A program made the position numbers and the translations under genes. Shown here one piece after another: positions 25,472 to 63,908 of a stretch of 64,000 bases of DNA. The stretch lies in sequence record OM386655.1; one strand, 5' to 3'. Under the pieces are notes generated by a model. That model did not search any database, had not been told where the DNA came from, and saw nothing but the letters and a program-made list of their open reading frames with translations. Every line of letters starts with the position of its first letter. Positions within the stretch are counted from its first letter, which is position 1. Source of the stretch: Escherichia phage vB_EcoM_ESCO10.

Positions 25472-27031
25472 ATGAAAAAGAATGCATTAGTACAAAAATG
25501 GTCCGCTCTGCTGGAAAACGAAGCTCTTCCTGAAATCGTTGGTGCTTCTAAACAAGCCATCATCGCTAAAATCTTTGAAAACCAGGAACAAGATATTCTG
25601 ACCGCTCCTGAATATCGTGACGAAAAAATCTCTGAAGCATTTGGTTCTTTCCTGACTGAAGCCGAAATCGGTGGTGACCACGGTTATGATGCTACCAATA
25701 TCGCAGCTGGCCAGACCTCTGGTGCAGTAACTCAGATTGGGCCGGCAGTAATGGGTATGGTTCGTCGTGCTATTCCTCATCTGATTGCTTTTGATATTTG
25801 TGGTGTTCAGCCTCTGAATAACCCTACTGGTCAGGTATTTGCACTGCGTGCAGTATATGGTAAAGACCCTGTAGCTGCTGGTGCTAAAGAAGCTTTCCAC
25901 CCGATGTATGCTCCGAACGCTATGTTCTCTGGTCAGGGTGCTGCTGAAGCTTTCGAAGCTCTGGCTGCAAGCAAAGTTCTTACCGTTGGTAAAATTTATT
26001 CTCACTTCTTCGAAGCAACCGGTTCTGCACACTTCCAGGCTGTTGAAGCTGTAACCGTTGATGCCGCCGCTACTGATGCTGCTAAACTTGACGTTGAAGT
26101 TACCAAACTGCTCGAAGCTGGTAAGCTGGCAGAAATCGCTGAAGGTATGGCTACTTCTATCGCCGAACTTCAGGAAGGCTTTAACGGTTCCCAGGATAAC
26201 CCGTGGAACGAAATGGGCTTCCGCATCGATAAACAAGTTATCGAAGCTAAATCCCGTCAGCTGAAAGCAAGCTACTCCATCGAACTGGCACAGGACCTTC
26301 GTGCAGTACACGGTATGGATGCAGATGCTGAACTGAGTGGTATTCTTGCTACTGAAATTATGTTGGAAATCAACCGTGAAGTTATCGATTGGATTAACTA
26401 TTCTGCACAGGTTGGTAAATCTGGTATGACCAACACCGTTGGCGCTAAAGCTGGTGTGTTTGACTTCCAGGACCCGATTGATATCCGTGGTGCTCGTTGG
26501 GCCGGTGAAAGCTTTAAAGCTCTCCTGTTCCAGATTGATAAAGAAGCCGCCGAAATCGCTCGTCAGACCGGTCGTGGTGCTGGTAACTTCATCATCGCTT
26601 CCCGTAACGTAGTTAACGTACTGGCTGCAGTTGATACTTCTGTAAGTTATGCCGCTCAGGGTCTTGGTCAAGGTTTCAACGTTGACACTACCAAAGCAGT
26701 ATTTGCCGGTGTTCTTGGTGGTAAATATCGCGTTTACATCGACCAGTATGCTCGTGCTGATTACTTCACCATCGGTTATAAAGGTTCTAACGAAATGGAC
26801 GCAGGTATTTACTATGCTCCTTACGTTGCACTGACCCCACTGCGTGGTTCCGATCCGAAGAACTTCCAGCCGGTAATGGGCTTCAAAACTCGTTACGGTA
26901 TCGGTATTAACCCGTTCGCTGACCCAGCTGCTCAGGCACCTACCAAACGTATTCAGAATGGTATGCCGGACATCGTTAACAGCCTCGGTCTGAATGGTTA
27001 CTTCCGTCGCGTTTACGTTAAAGGTATCTAA
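25472..27031 (+). CDS. 23: major capsid protein gp23
   Basis: 519 aa; size and position as T4 gp23 (521 aa); tandem to gp24, with which it shares family. Confidence 0.97.
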   Translation: MKKNALVQKWSALLENEALPEIVGASKQAIIAKIFENQEQDILTAPEYRDEKISEAFGSFLTEAEIGGDHGYDATNIAAGQTSGAVTQIGPAVMGMVRRAIPHLIAFDICGVQPLNNPTGQVFALRAVYGKDPVAAGAKEAFHPMYAPNAMFSGQGAAEAFEALAASKVLTVGKIYSHFFEATGSAHFQAVEAVTVDAAATDAAKLDVEVTKLLEAGKLAEIAEGMATSIAELQEGFNGSQDNPWNEMGFRIDKQVIEAKSRQLKASYSIELAQDLRAVHGMDADAELSGILATEIMLEINREVIDWINYSAQVGKSGMTNTVGAKAGVFDFQDPIDIRGARWAGESFKALLFQIDKEAAEIARQTGRGAGNFIIASRNVVNVLAAVDTSVSYAAQGLGQGFNVDTTKAVFAGVLGGKYRVYIDQYARADYFTIGYKGSNEMDAGIYYAPYVALTPLRGSDPKNFQPVMGFKTRYGIGINPFADPAAQAPTKRIQNGMPDIVNSLGLNGYFRRVYVKGI

Positions 27032-27047
27032 GATATAACCTTATTAT

Positions 27048-27065
27048 GGGAGACTTCGGTCTCCC
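27048..27065 (+). terminator. terminator hairpin GGGAGAC-UUCG-GUCUCCC
   Basis: 7-bp GC-rich stem, UUCG tetraloop, T-rich tail, 17 nt after gene 23 stop. Confidence 0.7.
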
Positions 27066-27080
27066 ATTCTTGTTTCTGTA

Positions 27081-27347
27081 CTATACAATCTTGACTCTGC
27101 GATTGATAATATCGCGGAAGTCAATACGATTTTCTTGGATTTTCAACCAGTTGCCGGATTTGTCTTTGGTGTGGGTAGAATATTCACCGTTCCACCAGAA
27201 GTCAGTAGCATAAGTCATGGTTTCGTATTTCTTAACTAACGCATTAACTGCATTACCGTTAGGATTGCGGCCAAATTTTTCTACCAAGGCTTTGATGTCT
27301 TTATCAAGAGCGGAAAGTGTAGTACGAATAAAGTTTAACTTGTTCAT
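27081..27347 (-). CDS. hypothetical small protein (88 aa), antisense to the late capsid operon
   Basis: ORF track 27081..27362; ATG 27347 has GAGGAG SD 7 nt upstream; early-type promoter upstream; product MNKLNFIRTTLSALDKDIKALVEKFGRNPNG... has no family I recognise. Confidence 0.5.
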   Translation of the reverse strand: MNKLNFIRTTLSALDKDIKALVEKFGRNPNGNAVNALVKKYETMTYATDFWWNGEYSTHTKDKSGNWLKIQENRIDFRDIINRRVKIV

Positions 27348-27376
27348 TTTTAATCTCCTCATGTTTTGATAGGTCT

Positions 27377-27406
27377 ATAGTAACACGTGATAACCTTGGT
27401 GTAAAC
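27377..27406 (-). promoter_or_regulatory. sigma70/T4 early-type promoter (-35 GTTTACA, 17-nt spacer, -10 TACTAT)
   Basis: Minus-strand read: TTGTTTACAccaaggttatcacgtgtTACTATagacc, positioned 30-60 nt upstream of the antisense ORF. Confidence 0.5.
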
Positions 27407-27412
27407 AACTTT

Positions 27413-27420
27413 TATAAATA
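27413..27420 (+). promoter_or_regulatory. T4-type late promoter TATAAATA
   Basis: Exact TATAAATA 29 nt upstream of gene 24. Confidence 0.75.
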
Positions 27421-27448: not shown

Positions 27449-28729
27449 ATGGCAAAGATTAACGAATTACTGCGCGAGTCAACAACTACTACCAGCAACT
27501 CATTGGGTCGCCCTAATCTTGTTGCTTTGACCCGTGCTACCACTAAACTAATTTATCGCGATATCATCGCTGAACAGCGTACAAACCAGCCTATCGCTGC
27601 GTTATACGGTGTCAAATACCTTACCCCTGATAATGAATTTAGCTTCCAGACTGGTGCTACTTACGGTGGTGAAGTTGGTTCTAAAGACCGTGAAACTATC
27701 CCGGAATTAACAGATAAGTCCCAGGCTATTGCCAAGGGTGGCTACTTTAAGTATCAGAATGTGGTTTATAAGGCTCTCGAATCAAGCCCTCTCGCATCTA
27801 CTAGCGCTACAGAATTGTCTGAAGCCCTCCAAGAAGGTTTAGTATCATTAACGTGTCGTTTGGTTCCAGATGCAGCCCACACAGAGAAATTCGAAGCAAA
27901 CGATGTCGAAATTAGCAATGCTGTATTCCAGGTTAATAAATGGAACGCTCCTGTTAAGTCTCGTAAACTTAAAACTTCTTTGACTGTGGAATTAGCCCAA
28001 GATATGGAATCTAATGGCTTCGACGCGCCGGCGTTCTTAGAAGACCTTTTAGCTACTGTAATGGCAGATGAAATCAATAAAGACGTATTACAATCCTTGA
28101 TTACAGTATCTAAACGTTACAGAGTAACAGGTGTATCTGATAACGGAATTATTGATTTATCTTATAATTCTGCTCCAGAAGGCGCACGTAAATTGTACGA
28201 AATGGTTTGTGAGATGAATTCCGAAATTCAGAAAACTACTTCTTATTCCGGTACGTTTGTTGTTGCCTCTAGTCGTGTGGCTGCGATGCTCGCAGGTTCC
28301 GGTTGGTTGAAACATAAACCTGAAGATGAGGCTTGGCTCCCAGAAACAGCTTATGGTTATTTGATTAATGGCTTACCTGTGTTCTGTGATGTGAATAGTC
28401 CATTGGATTATGTTACCGTAGGTGTTAAAGAAGACTACGGCGGTAATGAAGTTGTTGGTTCTATTTTCTACGCCCCGTACACCGAAGGTTTGGATTTAGA
28501 CGATCAAGAACACGTGGGTGCTTATAAGGTTATTGTAGACCCGGATAGTTTACAACCTTCAATTTCTCTAATGGTCCGTTATGCACTTTCGGCTAACCCT
28601 TATACTGTAGCTAAAGACGATAAAGAAGCTCGTATTATCGACGCAACTAATATGGATTTAATGGCAGGCCAGAGTAATATGTCATATCTGCTTGGTGTTA
28701 AACTTCCTCCAATTATTTACGAGGCATAA
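27449..28729 (+). CDS. 24: capsid vertex protein gp24
   Basis: 426 aa; MAKINELLRESTTTTSNSLGRPNLVALTRATTKLIY near-identical to T4 gp24 N-terminus. Confidence 0.95.
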   Translation: MAKINELLRESTTTTSNSLGRPNLVALTRATTKLIYRDIIAEQRTNQPIAALYGVKYLTPDNEFSFQTGATYGGEVGSKDRETIPELTDKSQAIAKGGYFKYQNVVYKALESSPLASTSATELSEALQEGLVSLTCRLVPDAAHTEKFEANDVEISNAVFQVNKWNAPVKSRKLKTSLTVELAQDMESNGFDAPAFLEDLLATVMADEINKDVLQSLITVSKRYRVTGVSDNGIIDLSYNSAPEGARKLYEMVCEMNSEIQKTTSYSGTFVVASSRVAAMLAGSGWLKHKPEDEAWLPETAYGYLINGLPVFCDVNSPLDYVTVGVKEDYGGNEVVGSIFYAPYTEGLDLDDQEHVGAYKVIVDPDSLQPSISLMVRYALSANPYTVAKDDKEARIIDATNMDLMAGQSNMSYLLGVKLPPIIYEA

Positions 28730-30013
28730 ATGAAAAAGATTAATGCATTAATACAAGAATCAACTTTGACGGCGGCGAACCAGGTCGCCCGTCCTAATCT
28801 TCTTTCATATACCCGAGCAACCAATAAAAGAATTTTTAAAGCCCTTGTTGCTGAACAAAAAACTACTCAGCCTGTAGCAGCATTATATGGCGTCCGTGTT
28901 TTAAACCCAGATGATAAAATGACTTATCTTGGTGGAGCTACCTTCGCAGGTGAAATTGGTATGTTTGAACGTAAAAACATTCCTGAGTTCACTAATAAAG
29001 ACGAAGCCTATGCTGCTGGTGATATGTTCCAATTTGAAAGCATAGTTTTCAAGGTATTAGAAGCTTCTCCATTTGCCGGAACCACTGAAACCGATTTAGG
29101 TGAAGTTATTTCAGAAGCTATTGCAGCGGGTCATATTCGTATGATGTCTGATGCAGCCTTTACCAATAAATTTGAAAAAGGGCATCCTGAGATTGCTGAA
29201 GCCGGGTTCCGTATTGATAAGTGGCAGACTGAAGTTAAATCACGTAAACTTAAAACTTCTTTGACTGTAGAACTGGCTCAGGATTTAGAATCTAACGGGT
29301 TTAATGCTCCGGACTTTATCGACAATATTTTGGCTATCCAAATGGCTGAAGAAATCAATAAAGACGTTCTACAATCTTTAATTACCGTGAGTTCACGTTT
29401 TAAAGTCCAGGGTGTTTCCGAAAAAGGTGTACTTAATCTTACTGATGCCGCTTATGATAATGCTCAGGACCGCGCGCGTACTTTATATTACTATATGTGT
29501 GAAATGAATTCTGCGGTTCAACGCCAGACTTCTTTTGCAGGTACTTATGCAGTAGCTAGTTCGCGTTGTGCCGCTATTTTAGCTGCGTCCGGTTGGGTTG
29601 AGAAAAAAGAAGACCAGGACGAATTGGCTTATGGTATATTAAAGAATGGACTACCTCTTTATGCTGATATGAATAGTCCGTGTGATTATGTTATTGTTGG
29701 TGTAAATGCTGATATGGGTGAAGGACAGACGGTCGCATCTTTGTATTATGCGCCATATGTAGAAGGCCTGGAAAACGTAGATGATGAGGGTGATACTTCT
29801 GTAGGTGAATTTAAGGTTATTGTAGACCCGGAAAGTTTGCAACCTACCGTAGCCCTGTTGGCTCGATATGCACTGACAGCAAACCCGTATACCGTTGCCA
29901 AAGATGATAAAGAAGCTCGTATTATTGATGGGTCCGATATGGATAAGATGGCTAACCAAAGTCAATTGAGTTCTTATCTTGGTGTTAAACTTCCTCCATT
30001 GGATAAAAACTAA
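28730..30013 (+). CDS. capsid vertex protein gp24 paralog (tandem duplicate)
   Basis: 427 aa; collinear with upstream gp24 (KSRKLKTSLTVELAQD, EINKDVLQSLITVS, ANPYTVAKDDKEARIID shared) but diverged elsewhere; ATG 1 nt after gp24 stop. Confidence 0.85.
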   Translation: MKKINALIQESTLTAANQVARPNLLSYTRATNKRIFKALVAEQKTTQPVAALYGVRVLNPDDKMTYLGGATFAGEIGMFERKNIPEFTNKDEAYAAGDMFQFESIVFKVLEASPFAGTTETDLGEVISEAIAAGHIRMMSDAAFTNKFEKGHPEIAEAGFRIDKWQTEVKSRKLKTSLTVELAQDLESNGFNAPDFIDNILAIQMAEEINKDVLQSLITVSSRFKVQGVSEKGVLNLTDAAYDNAQDRARTLYYYMCEMNSAVQRQTSFAGTYAVASSRCAAILAASGWVEKKEDQDELAYGILKNGLPLYADMNSPCDYVIVGVNADMGEGQTVASLYYAPYVEGLENVDDEGDTSVGEFKVIVDPESLQPTVALLARYALTANPYTVAKDDKEARIIDGSDMDKMANQSQLSSYLGVKLPPLDKN

Positions 30014-30038: not shown

Positions 30039-31046
30039 TTATTTGGATACTAATTCAATCCACACAGCTCGTAGCGTATCTTTAACACACTCAATGAGCT
30101 GCTTTTTAACTTCAACAGGATTTTCTGCATCGGTTAATTCTAATTCTTCACGGGACGCCTCTTCCAAAATATCTTGGACTGTTAGTCCCATTACCTTTCC
30201 GAAATCCTTAGGCGTTACTTCACCAATCTTACTGATAACATTGTTAATACGGTTAACAGTCACATAATCAGTGAATTGCCACATCAAGTCCATGTCATCT
30301 TGGGACAACACAACAGCAGCCTTGATAGGCTTATCAGACTTTTTCTTTTCACTGAATTTAGAGTTCTTACATTTAATCGCTACACGATTTCCATTTGGAA
30401 GCCAGGTAGGAACATCAGGTTTCAGTACAAAGCCTTCAGCCGTAAATACTTTGCCTTCAACCTTTGGAATAAAATCAGTCGAGTTTGCGATAGTCAGGCC
30501 TGCATTATCCACTGCAAAATTGTAATCAGGAACCACAGAATCAAAATCATTAGGGAGCTTAATAAGGTCTTCAAAGCTACCAGTAGCCAGACATGGAGCA
30601 ACTTTAAACTTATGGATAATGCAGAATGCTTCCATCAATGTATCAGTCAGAACAGATTCTGTGCCGTCGTCTTTAGTAACGCGGATATCGAACACATAAA
30701 AATCTTTATCACCATAATCAACATTCTTCTGAATACCTGAACCGGCGAACTCACCATAAATCTGGTACGACTGATAATCAATCGATTCAATTAGATGCTG
30801 AACAGATTTAATAGAATCAGCATAATTCTTTAAAACAATTTCATAGCCATAGAAATCTTCGGCTGGGAGAATTGGGCCAGTGCGCTTGGCGCATGTGACT
30901 GCGTCACGTTCTATGATTAGACTAAAGTTCGTACCATGAATCTTTTCACGAGCTACCCATTCACCATCGGTCATACCATGGGTACGGAGTTTTTCAATGA
31001 ACTTATTGTTGTAGTGGTTTTCCAGACTGCTATATTTCTTGAACAT
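30039..31046 (-). CDS. rnlB: RNA ligase 2
   Basis: 335 aa; [13 protein letters not shown]...[19 protein letters not shown]...[21 protein letters not shown] matches T4 Rnl2 (KxHGxN nucleotidyltransferase motif). Confidence 0.93.
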
Positions 31047-31373: not shown

Positions 31374-31522
31374 AATGATTCCCGTGTTGAGTTAGTGAAG
31401 CCATCTTAACATGGGATTTTTAACTTGTAAACAGGAGTTTTATACCAGATATTCTTGAACGAAAGATTTACTTTACAACCGCTAGTACCTTTAATAAATA
31501 TTAAATTAATAACGGGGGATTT

Positions 31523-46432: not shown

Positions 46433-46489
46433 ATTGTTCTCCTCATGTTTGTGTAAGGTAATAGTACCACATCCTTGTGGTGTTGTAAA

Positions 46490-48613
46490 CTACATTTTGA
46501 ATTTAGTTGGTAAAGCGGAGATGTTCAAAGATGCTGCAAGGATTTCCATAGCTTCGTTGCTTTCAGAAATAGATTCACTAATCAAGAATTGGCTGAATCC
46601 ATCCATCAGGCGAACTTCGCCGGTTTCCATCAAATGGTCACCATCGTAAACAGATTCGCTGAGCTCTGAAGGAGGTGTTACGGTAGCTTCCATAAGGTAT
46701 TTGTGAGACACTCTATCATTCATGGCAAAAGCCGCTACTTTATCAACCTTCAACAATAATCCGCGCGGAAGGATAATTTCTGCTTCTTCGGCATATTCTG
46801 TAAGGTCGCCGGGAGCGATAACTTTAACTGCTTCAGCACCTCGAATAACCATACCAATTTCAGCAATTCTATCCGCAGGGCCTTCAGGTGCAATTGGATT
46901 ACCAAACTCGTCTTCTTCCCATTCTACCTCTTCGTCATCGACTTCACCCACATCAGATGAACTACCACTAGCCAATTTAAACAACTCATCAGCGGAGGAT
47001 AAAGAACCTTCACCACCAACAAAAACGGCTTGGTTGTCGAGGGCCATATAATTTTTACCGAATTCACCAAAGATGTTAGGCTTTAATGAGGCTGACACAA
47101 AGTTCTTAAAGTAAAATGTTTTGTTATCGATATTATGGCGCAGAATTTTGTATGGCAAATCCTGACCACGATACAAAATAGTACCCTTAGGAAGTTTAAT
47201 ACCCTTAGTAAATGCTGAGTCTAAATCCTTAATCAATTTAATAGCCGTTGTATTGTTTTCGGATTCAGGTTTACCTAAAAGGAATAAGTTCATAGGAGCA
47301 TATTCAGCTGCGCAATATTCAATAATAGCGTTGCTTTCGTCTTTGGTTAGGTCCTTAGGTTTAATGAGCTCACCTGAATAAGCATATGCATCACTAATAG
47401 AATCGTTAATTAGTTTATAAACGGCTTCCATAGCGAAAGCAATTCGAGAGGCCTTTTCTGAAGGGGAGCCTTTAAAACGAGCGCTCAAGTTATTAACAAT
47501 TTTCTTAATAATATCCAGACTATTGGTGGTATTGATTTGCGAAAGGCCGCTTAAAAGTCTATCGACTTCTGTATTAAAAAATGCCATATTTTTAGAGTAA
47601 ATTTCAAACCCTTGTTTATCTCTATTAGCATAATTTAGTTTAAATTTACTATCAGTCATTAAAGCGTGCGTGAGAGCAATGGTGTATCTAAAGTTGGCAA
47701 GGTCCTCGCTCTTAGATTTAAACTGAGAAGCCTGGCGCATTTTGGTAATAGCACCTTTTTTAAAGTTCTGGCTAATCTGTTCAATACCTTCATTCTCAGG
47801 GCCTTCGGCAGTGTGAACCGGTACAGAAGCTTCAAATTCGTTATATACCTGCAATTCTTTAGGGGACAAAGTTTCAGGCTCAGCAGTAGAATACTGTGCG
47901 GCTGCTGCCATACGACGGGAAATCTTAGTACGGGTAATGACAGCCTTATCAGTACGTTTCTCTTCAACCTTAGCGATACTTGCCGCCATAGCTTCGACCT
48001 TACTTACGGCTTGACCTGTTTTCTTAGAAACATAAACTTCACCAACTTTAGACTCGACCTTAGTATAAAGATCGGCATCAATTTCAGGCATACCTTTGAT
48101 ATCTTCGATATTAGAACCACGACGTACTAAAAGAACGTAGGTATGTTTTCCACTGAATTGGAACATATCATCAACAACTTTAAACTTACCACCAGTACGA
48201 GCCATTACTAAACGAGCCAATACACGTTGTACAGTAGGGCCCTTACCTTTCATTTTCTTAGTAGGGAAACGGAACAGAACTGCGTCCATTTTAAGTTTGT
48301 TTACTTGTTCATATACTGTATCGAAAATAGTATTCAATGCACCAAGTGGGTCAGAACCAAGTCCACCTTTGAGTTCAGCCGGGGCTCCTTTGCTTGACAA
48401 ACTCATTAGAATAACATGAACATATTTGTCACCCGGCTTAACCATTTTAACTGCGTCTCCTTGAGACGCATAAGATACCATACGAGCAACAAGGTTATCA
48501 TTACCTGGAGCTTGAATAGAGAAAATCTGTGGGATACCGGAACCTGGTTTAAGATTTGTTACTGGATAGTTTTTAGCGGAATCACTATCAAAAACTTCGT
48601 TTAAATTTTCCAT
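46490..48613 (-). CDS. Alt-like ADP-ribosyltransferase, paralog 2
   Basis: 707 aa; collinear with Alt (GSPAELKGGLG, MKGKGPTVQRVLARLV, TKISRR...); retains YRGQDL Arg, FKNFVSASL and EEAEIILPRGLL (ExE) motifs. Confidence 0.85.
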   Translation of the reverse strand: MENLNEVFDSDSAKNYPVTNLKPGSGIPQIFSIQAPGNDNLVARMVSYASQGDAVKMVKPGDKYVHVILMSLSSKGAPAELKGGLGSDPLGALNTIFDTVYEQVNKLKMDAVLFRFPTKKMKGKGPTVQRVLARLVMARTGGKFKVVDDMFQFSGKHTYVLLVRRGSNIEDIKGMPEIDADLYTKVESKVGEVYVSKKTGQAVSKVEAMAASIAKVEEKRTDKAVITRTKISRRMAAAAQYSTAEPETLSPKELQVYNEFEASVPVHTAEGPENEGIEQISQNFKKGAITKMRQASQFKSKSEDLANFRYTIALTHALMTDSKFKLNYANRDKQGFEIYSKNMAFFNTEVDRLLSGLSQINTTNSLDIIKKIVNNLSARFKGSPSEKASRIAFAMEAVYKLINDSISDAYAYSGELIKPKDLTKDESNAIIEYCAAEYAPMNLFLLGKPESENNTTAIKLIKDLDSAFTKGIKLPKGTILYRGQDLPYKILRHNIDNKTFYFKNFVSASLKPNIFGEFGKNYMALDNQAVFVGGEGSLSSADELFKLASGSSSDVGEVDDEEVEWEEDEFGNPIAPEGPADRIAEIGMVIRGAEAVKVIAPGDLTEYAEEAEIILPRGLLLKVDKVAAFAMNDRVSHKYLMEATVTPPSELSESVYDGDHLMETGEVRLMDGFSQFLISESISESNEAMEILAASLNISALPTKFKM

Positions 48614-55370: not shown

Positions 55371-55420
55371 TATTTGTTGGTACAAGTCTATAGTATCATG
55401 CCTACTGGAGAAGTAAACAC
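55371..55420 (-). promoter_or_regulatory. early-type promoter-like element (-35 GTTTAC, 17-nt spacer, -10 TACTAT)
   Basis: Minus read: GTGTTTACttctccagtaggcatgaTACTATagacttgtacc; shares tatagacYtgtacc motif with element at 54946-55000. Confidence 0.45.
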
Positions 55421-58907: not shown

Positions 58908-58967
58908 TTCGATTTCCTCATGTGTTGGTAGGACTACTATACCACAGTCCTACCATGGTGTAAACAC

Positions 58968-62701: not shown

Positions 62702-62759
62702 TTTGTTTTCTCCTCATTAGTTGATAGGCTTATACTAACACATCATGAGGAGATGTAAA

Positions 62760-63908
62760 CTACTCTATCACAATTTCTTTCAAATATTTTTCAGGGATTT
62801 GGGCCTTATGATTTTTCAAGAACACAGAGTTAATCTGGTCTACGACAGTGTCATAATTAATACCGCCTGCGTACGCCTGCATAAGAATAGAGAACAAGCC
62901 AGGGAAGTCTTTGAGGATTAACTGTCCGGTAACGGCATAGTCCTTACGGTCACGCCCCTTGAGCTGAGAATATGCCGCTTCTAACAAGGCTAAAGATTGT
63001 TCTAAGTAGTCTAAATGGATACGTTCAAACGCATTGATTTTCTCGATGGCAAATGAATCCGTACTGAACAAACCTCGGAGGTCATCAGTTCCACCAGCCA
63101 CTACAACTTCAAACAACCGTTCGTTATTGTTAATGGAATCCTTAGTATGATGCAGTGCGCTATACCAAGCAGTTTTGAGTTTAAAGAACGTGCCATCTTT
63201 AAGTACAAAGATAAAGCCTTCAATACCCTCTTGTTTACGGATATCGCCAACAAAATCGCCTTCAGAGAGTTCGTAGCTTTTAACCAAATGCTTACGCAGA
63301 GCGCCATCTTTAAACAGTTCAGCGTAAGGGATATACTCGCCTGTTTCGTTATTACGAACGTTCAGTAAGATAAGGTTTGTTTCTTGGTAAGCCAACACAA
63401 TACGGTTAGTAGGGGCGACGTACTCAAGGTTGCATGTATATCCTGCTTTAGTAATTTCTTCTAAACGGGCAGCGAAGGCCTCGTTTTCAGGGAGACGAAG
63501 GAAACGTAAAGAATCATGCACCATTGATGAATGGATAGAGCCTTTAGATTTAACAGAAAGATACTGCCGGTCCATGAAGGTAGAAATCAAGGAACCATCT
63601 TCCTTAGCCATAACCAAGTCAATATTTTCCGGCGATAAATCCAGACCAATGGTCATAGGGTTTTCATCTAGATTAAAGAACTTTTGCATAGGACGAGCCG
63701 CAATACGTACGGGACCACTCTCGTCCATTTCAAACATAATGCCTCGGCACTCTAGTGCGCCGTCTTCCAACCAATCACTGTACGATGCATAGTTATAACT
63801 AAAGATGCGATAGTTGACTCCTAGCGCACTCTGGAAGTCTTTAAAGAAGAACTTAGATTTAGTCGAGTTTTTAACCAGGGCCATTAAGTTATCATATAAT
63901 TCAATCAT
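62760..63908 (-). CDS. rnlA: RNA ligase 1
   Basis: 382 aa; YRIFSYNYASYSDWL...ALECRGIMFEM, KEDGSL (ligase Lys motif), NRIVLAYQE match T4 Rnl1. Confidence 0.93.
   Translation of the reverse strand: MIELYDNLMALVKNSTKSKFFFKDFQSALGVNYRIFSYNYASYSDWLEDGALECRGIMFEMDESGPVRIAARPMQKFFNLDENPMTIGLDLSPENIDLVMAKEDGSLISTFMDRQYLSVKSKGSIHSSMVHDSLRFLRLPENEAFAARLEEITKAGYTCNLEYVAPTNRIVLAYQETNLILLNVRNNETGEYIPYAELFKDGALRKHLVKSYELSEGDFVGDIRKQEGIEGFIFVLKDGTFFKLKTAWYSALHHTKDSINNNERLFEVVVAGGTDDLRGLFSTDSFAIEKINAFERIHLDYLEQSLALLEAAYSQLKGRDRKDYAVTGQLILKDFPGLFSILMQAYAGGINYDTVVDQINSVFLKNHKAQIPEKYLKEIVIE

Follow-up and report, generated by a model that had tools for sequence, protein, structure and literature searches.

The interval between capsid genes 23 and 24 of Escherichia phage vB_EcoM_ESCO10 carries, on the opposite strand, a small gene that is truly coding and under strong purifying selection. 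Gene and promoter together are probably a moron-like, self-contained early accessory cassette, with a product that would bind nucleic acid or an acidic partner.

Our analysis covered a window of 64,000 nucleotides of this phage (OM386655.1), which its sequence places in Dhakavirus (Straboviridae, Tevenvirinae). The 23-24 region is 98.3% identical to that of Escherichia phage vB_EcoM-VR5 and ~93% identical to that of JS98. The locus reads 21, 22, 23 (plus strand), small ORF (minus), 24a and 24b (plus), rnlB (minus), with the following features:

25472..27031, plus strand: gene 23, major capsid protein, left flank, stop at 27031 (ORF listing and VR5 annotation)
27046..27077, plus strand: gene 23 intrinsic terminator, hairpin ATGGGAGAC-TTCG-GTCTCCCAT and a T-run on the plus strand only (sequence, folding)
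27081..27347, minus strand: CDS of an 88-aa basic protein (MNKLNF...), start ATG 27347, stop TAG 27081-27083
27355..27360, minus strand: Shine-Dalgarno (SD) sequence GAGGAG, 7 nt before the ATG at 27347
27377..27406, minus strand: T4-early-type sigma70 promoter (motif enrichment and cross-genus conservation)
27377-27382, minus strand: -10 element TACTAT, within an extended -10 TGT-TACTAT (27377-27385) with TG at -15/-14
27400-27406, minus strand: -35 element GTTTACA, 17-nt spacer to the -10
27413-27420, plus strand: gene 24 late promoter TATAAATA, 6 nt beyond the antisense -35 element
27449..28729, plus strand: gene 24a, capsid vertex protein I, right flank (ORF listing and VR5 annotation)
28730-30013, plus strand: gene 24b, paralogue directly after 24a (ORF listing and VR5 annotation)
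30039-31046, minus strand: rnlB (ORF listing and VR5 annotation)
31403-31432, 46461-46490, 55390-55418, 58936-58965 and 62732-62760, minus strand: further GTTTAC...TGnTAnnnT promoters (motif scan)

Tandem vertex-gene paralogues 24a/24b are found in the window, VR5, JS98, VR7 and Gelderlandvirus SEA1; Mosigvirus and T4 have a single copy.

A small antisense gene under purifying selection

Pairwise dN/dS among nine distinct Dhakavirus-type alleles is 0.03-0.13. The window and VR5 alleles differ by seven synonymous and no nonsynonymous changes, and the window protein is 100% identical to VR5_174 and corresponds to JS98 ORF173c. Across the family, the full-length protein alignment holds down to 25% identity, with K3, F6, L11, L14, N30-G31-N32, N35 and Q71 invariant. 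We judge the ORF to be truly coding because of these dN/dS values, together with homologues of as little as 25% identity at the same antisense position. A tblastn search with the window protein matched 225 of 50,697 phage records, against a denominator for this locus of ~1,495 records with a T4-type gene 23 3' end. Conservation had been put forward as a check by the first-pass annotation; in close relatives the ORF is neither absent nor frame-shifted, and it is intact in 225 phage records.

The ATG at 27347 is the start common to all genera, and VR5 annotates an identical 88-aa CDS. The SD sequence is kept as GAGGAG or GGAG in all genera compared. The 88-aa opposite-strand ORF and the strong GAGGAG signal originally proposed therefore both hold, at 27081-27347 and 27355-27360. 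The longest frame in the ORF listing is 27081..27362 (minus strand, 93 aa). We rejected its in-frame ATG at 27360-27362, which is probably not the start: it overlaps the SD sequence, lacks one of its own and is unconserved in Mosigvirus. Two forward ORFs overlap the small gene (27046-27213, plus strand, 55 aa; 27217-27369, plus strand, 50 aa). Both are most likely shadow frames, because the substitution pattern matches the minus-strand frame. A search for structured RNAs or tRNAs within the 23/24 interval gave none, the matches being far below gathering scores.

The protein matches the PHROG 6003 profile with E = 1.1e-48 (residues 1-87 on profile positions 1-87 of 90), which identifies it as a member of this family, annotated as hypothetical proteins. 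RB69ORF188c, JS98 ORF173c, VR7ORF190c and VR5_174 belong to the same family and occupy the same antisense 23/24 position, and the window gene is one more member. Our literature searches returned nothing on the name RB69ORF188c or on WPK33856.1, the accession of the AV110 homologue, and no reported function, expression data or structure for any PHROG 6003 member. The first-pass annotation had seen no HNH or GIY-YIG motif and no recognisable family. The first statement stands, since BLASTP against T4 SegD gives E = 0.55 over 8 residues and no GIY-YIG/HNH similarity. The second agrees with Pfam, where no family was found. The sole Pfam match, DUF5380 (E = 0.13), occurs in just four near-identical members and was taken as chance. 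NCBIfam profiles gave nothing meaningful, and PADLOC defence families gave no match for the window protein, with isolated hits at E > 0.004 in single members.

The antisense slot between genes 23 and 24 is kept in at least three genera (Dhaka-, Gapriver- and Mosigvirus) and three uncultured lineages. Homologues at this slot are 61% identical to the window protein in Gaprivervirus and 31-35% in Mosigvirus (RB69ORF188c type). The uncultured T4-type contigs P0013, P0019 and P0005 carry homologues at 25-70% identity, again antisense between 23 and 24. The family is rare. When 1.84 billion cluster representatives were searched exhaustively with its profile, about six true clusters emerged, all of 84-90 aa, and a scan of IMG/VR added nine further loci only, all from isolate genomes. 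Outside the T4-type phages, rV5-like homologues are embedded, far from the capsid genes, in long runs of small ORFs that share a strand and carry no annotation, and one siphovirus-type contig has a homologue at the boundary of its tail and replication modules. No endonuclease is called adjacent to the rV5-like and siphovirus-type homologues. Four further candidates were not counted as homologues. P0021-P0023 gave large multi-stretch HMM matches that sum weak matches in internally repetitive sequences, and P0024 is a 160-aa chimera with a fragment of the small gene.

AlphaFold2, run on a 13-sequence alignment, gave a model with mean pLDDT 92.8 and pTM 0.77, comprising helix 3-25, helix 31-48, strands 52-61 and 67-71, and helix 77-87. 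This confident model predicts a compact helix-helix-beta-hairpin-helix fold with no recognisable relative. A fold search found no relative, the viral structure library returning only the family's own rV5-type member (TM 0.90), and a PDB sequence-profile search gave nothing below E = 0.86. Structure prediction, suggested at the outset as a check, thus yielded a well-scored model and no related fold. The window protein is small, soluble and basic by sequence (pI about 9.8). The pI is 9.2-9.9 in 15 of 16 members, which are hydrophilic, with no Cys and no hydrophobic segment. The conserved positive charge is a weak hint of nucleic-acid binding.

Promoter of the small gene

Upstream of the SD sequence, the -35 and -10 elements are joined by the further features of a T4-type early sigma70 promoter: a spacer of about 17 nt, a -10 of the form TAnnnT, a TGn extension and AT-rich upstream sequence (TTTATTTATAAAAGTT). 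Transcription is predicted to start near 27370 (minus strand).

The loose pattern GTTTAC-N15-18-TANNNT is weakly enriched in the window (10 matches vs 4.4 expected; a count of 10 is reached in 5 of 100 shuffles). Once the extended -10 TG is required, the window has six matches vs 0.31 expected, all six on the minus strand, and none of 100 shuffles reaches six. An SD and start codon follow 28-41 nt after the -10 in five of the six extended-motif sites, and the near-identical leader CCTAyCAAnnCATGAGGAG is present in four sites of this class. The promoter of the small gene is one member of a real class of promoter-leader modules, specific to one strand. Repeated modules of this kind could act as recombination substrates.

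Dhaka-, Gapriver- and Mosigvirus all have GTTTACA at -35, always with a spacer of 17 nt. The -10 is TACTAT in Dhaka- and Mosigvirus and CATAAT in Gaprivervirus. Despite the fixed hexamers and the fixed 17-nt length, the spacer sequence differs between genera (Dhaka-, Gapriver-, Mosig- and Tequatrovirus). When T4 and the P0013 lineage are included in the alignment, the gene 24 start, the late promoter, the -35, the -10 and the SD/start all prove positionally homologous. For late promoters of T4, TATAAATA alone suffices, and hexamer conservation beyond TATAAATA is for this reason best attributed, on these alignments, to the antisense promoter. The sigma70/T4-early-like promoter first read at this site (GTTTACA, 17 nt, TACTAT) is confirmed by the enriched extended motif and by the conserved hexamers and spacing.

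The gene 24 late promoter and the antisense promoter are arranged back to back. Across the whole window, TATAAATA occurs 16 times vs 7.2 expected, with 14 of the 16 occurrences on the plus strand. Such a distribution fits late promoters of the T4 type serving the block of structural genes.

From the promoter type, and by analogy with T4, where segD lies behind a homologous promoter, we infer early transcription of the small gene. Our literature search found no transcriptome of JS98 or of a Dhakavirus.

The 23/24 interval and its cargo

In Winkler-, Jiaoda-, Gelderland-, Karam- and Gualtarvirus, the 23/24 interval is merely 81-96 bp, consists of the hairpin, the T-run and TATAAATA, and lacks the antisense promoter. 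The Winklervirus hairpin and T-run are identical to those of the window (GGGAGACTTCGGTCTCCCATTCTTGTTTCT), with TATAAATA almost immediately after. The extra DNA of the window (~27079-27409) lies exactly between T-run and TATAAATA and holds promoter, leader and ORF only. Given the empty interval in these five genera, the small gene is an inserted promoter and ORF cassette that uses the pre-existing gene 23 hairpin. The positions of that hairpin and of TATAAATA bear out the placement of the ORF by the first-pass annotation, between the gene 23 terminator and the gene 24 late promoter.

The hairpin itself (GGGAGAC-TTCG-GTCTCCC, 27046-27067) is stable on both strands (-14.8 and -15.9 kcal/mol; z -3.7 and -2.9), and the T-run is confined to the plus strand. 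It doubles as the 3' boundary of the antisense gene, with no U-tract on the ORF strand in the window. The same holds for Dhaka- and Mosigvirus, whereas in Gaprivervirus the ORF is followed by a T-run and the terminator is fully bidirectional. Where the U-tract is missing, it is uncertain whether the antisense transcript ends at the hairpin, and it could continue antisense into gene 23.

The idea that an ORFan cassette can arrive with an early promoter of its own was taken from work on RB49 and phi1 (Arbiol et al. 2010, PMC2839356). Like the PeSL + ORFan cassettes of these phages and the lambdoid 'morons', the window element is a small orphan ORF with its own sigma70-type early promoter. It is similarly bounded by a stem-loop, patchy among relatives and equipped with a promoter-leader module that is repeated in the genome. 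The cassette separates two genes that are neighbours in related phages, and it has its own promoter; its terminator is the shared gene 23 hairpin, which on the ORF strand has a U-tract in Gaprivervirus and none in the window. The PeSL stem-loop (polyG/polyC) is part of the promoter, whereas the lone hairpin of the window is the gene 23 terminator, at the 3' end. PeSL cassettes occupy a hyperplastic region, whereas the window cassette lies within the conserved head-gene core. No PeSL-type stem-loop is visible in or beside the window promoter sequence. The element would work like a PeSL cassette, yet it is not one by the stem-loop criterion.

Other phages carry other cargo in the same slot. Slopekvirus KP15 has a homing endonuclease (L031, 2237-2872, plus strand), and Krischvirus Makalu_003 has two 50-aa forward ORFs in the 23/24 interval (L033, 2363-2701, plus strand). 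These comparisons indicate repeated insertion into the 23/24 interval among T4-type phages.

T4 carries segD at the matching slot, as had been pointed out in the first reading of the window; the gene is on the opposite strand, and T4 lacks the small ORF. T4 segD lies directly behind a homologous promoter and start region. In NC_000866 (L025, 2734-2800, minus strand), TTTACA-17 nt-TGa-TATTAT precedes segD and stands back to back with the late promoter of gene 24. According to a review (PMC2988022), T4 has no identifiable promoter specific to segD, and segD transcripts should be vanishingly scarce. Time-resolved omics of T4 classify segD as early RNA and middle protein, the protein being detected by mass spectrometry (PMC9697503, supplementary files 4-6). 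For the window promoter these T4 expression data are indirect. The T4 and window loci share the slot, the orientation, a positionally homologous upstream control region and a downstream hairpin, but differ in cargo, which is a 223-aa GIY-YIG enzyme in T4 and an 88-aa protein with no nuclease motif in the window.

Unlike T4 and the window, IME08-type phages contain both genes, in tandem. In IME08, IME341 and mobillu, a segD homologue follows the ORF on the same strand, 3 nt past its stop codon and before the hairpin, resulting in an operon of promoter, ORF, segD and hairpin. The SegD homologue of the IME08 type is 56% identical to T4 SegD. All segD-carrying alleles have the last two ORF codons altered (KIA/KIV to KAA), and the 3' end of the ORF may be, or overlap, the SegD target. 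A comparison of IME08 (L002, 1633-2366) with JS98 (L007, 3223-3340) places the segD insertion point exactly between ORF stop and hairpin. Among the genomes examined in detail, most have the ORF and no segD: VR5, JS98, JS10, WG01, VR7, PhAPEC2, AV110, phiC120 and the uncultured contigs.

The Mosigvirus mobillu (MN850622, L017) provides a case of transfer. Its genes 24 and 23 match those of PhAPEC2 at 98-100% identity. By contrast, a patch of ~1 kb (~1480-2500), spanning the leader, small ORF, segD and terminator region, is 83-100% IME08-like, that is, of Dhakavirus type. The patch replaced the resident Mosigvirus allele, itself only ~35% identical. Its upstream junction lies between -10 and SD, matching the crossover positions described for the PeSL cassettes of RB49 and phi1 (PMC2839356). 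By this comparison, the small gene is mobile between genera, with ORF and segD having moved as a pair, and its hitch-hiking with segD appears to be real.

Proposed role and alternatives

Read as a moron-like cassette, the element would have three parts: the T4-early-type sigma70 promoter, a leader of 23 nt that contains the strong SD, and the ORF of 88 codons. They are inserted antisense exactly between the T-run of gene 23 and the late promoter of gene 24, with the existing hairpin serving as 3' boundary. Unmodified host RNA polymerase would transcribe the small gene in the first minutes, before and independently of the late capsid genes. The small basic protein would then bind nucleic acid or an acidic host or phage partner, possibly in host takeover, counter-defence or inter-phage competition; target and role are guesses. 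Head assembly seems not to require the gene, since it is missing from many T4-type genera whose capsid genes are the same. Its strict retention at one position in T4-type carriers could mean a local role tied to genes 23 and 24.

The functional product might instead be the RNA. An early antisense transcript might interfere with premature expression of gene 23 or 24 or target the gene 23 mRNA at its 3' end, and the ORF would then be incidental. Read-through into gene 23 is conceivable where the ORF strand has no U-tract (Dhaka- and Mosigvirus), and T4 retains the promoter despite its different cargo. However, dN/dS of 0.03-0.13 and protein-level conservation at 25-35% aa identity denote selection on the protein, and this pattern contradicts an RNA-only role. 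The strong SD is likewise conserved, Gaprivervirus ends the ORF with its full bidirectional terminator and T-run, five T4-type genera do without the antisense promoter at 23/24, and family members outside the T4-type phages are not antisense to capsid genes. We regard this explanation as very unlikely. A capsid-related protein, acting as a chaperone, regulator or minor component tied to gp23 or to the duplicated gp24a/24b, would suit the invariant position between 23 and 24 in every T4-type carrier and the two gene 24 copies of several carriers. The gene is nevertheless in the opposite orientation and has a sigma70-type instead of a late promoter. Mosigvirus carriers have a single gene 24, Gelderlandvirus has two copies yet no small ORF, and rV5-like homologues sit among small early-region-style ORFs far from capsid genes. 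Replacement of the allele by that of another genus was also tolerated. Orientation, promoter type, distribution and the distant homologues contradict a capsid role at the level of genome comparison, and we find it highly unlikely.

The small ORF might instead be part of a segD element, as a SegD partner, regulator or immunity factor, or as a landing pad that supplies a promoter and target site. The two genes form one operon in IME08, IME341 and mobillu, where the last two ORF codons are changed; they entered a Mosigvirus together, and T4 segD follows the homologous promoter and start region. Yet the genomes examined in detail mostly have the ORF without segD, T4 has segD without the ORF, the ORF product is dissimilar to SegD, and rV5-like and siphovirus-type members have no endonuclease called alongside. 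A segD element is thus quite unlikely as an explanation of the gene, and the many genomes with one gene and not the other contradict, by their gene content, a dedicated SegD-partner role. The landing-pad or hitch-hiker part of this explanation is compatible with the moron-like cassette that we favour.

More tentatively, and with considerable doubt, we propose a broader history for this cassette. The family might be one of new-fold early effectors (counter-defence, host takeover, inter-phage competition) captured independently by T4-, rV5- and siphovirus-type phages, and spread between T4-type genera by hitch-hiking with SegD, which would insert behind the ORF and borrow its promoter. If true, this borrowing would explain the early expression of T4 segD, long called promoter-less.

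The gene is already present in public genomes as a hypothetical protein, and is hence an ordinary accessory cassette of a known kind, not a new type of system. New here are the delimitation of the cassette, the evidence for its functionality, the picture of the 23/24 slot as a site of variable cargo and a likely promoter of T4 segD. The practical value is modest: the gene is a clean candidate for accessory-protein screens (toxicity, counter-defence, interaction partners), being well delimited, conserved and probably early-expressed, with a confident model of a predicted new fold. More informative than the gene is the comparative picture, in which the antisense promoter serves the ORF, the ORF and segD, or segD alone. 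The variable-cargo slot offers a testable explanation for early T4 segD expression and a natural example of an accessory gene carried across genera together with a homing endonuclease.

Two details of the database records concern the family. The 90-aa homologue P0013 is named 'NADPH-dependent curcumin reductase CurA' in one source, an evident misannotation, and 'Acinetobacter phage ABPH49' (L004) is placed in Vequintavirinae.
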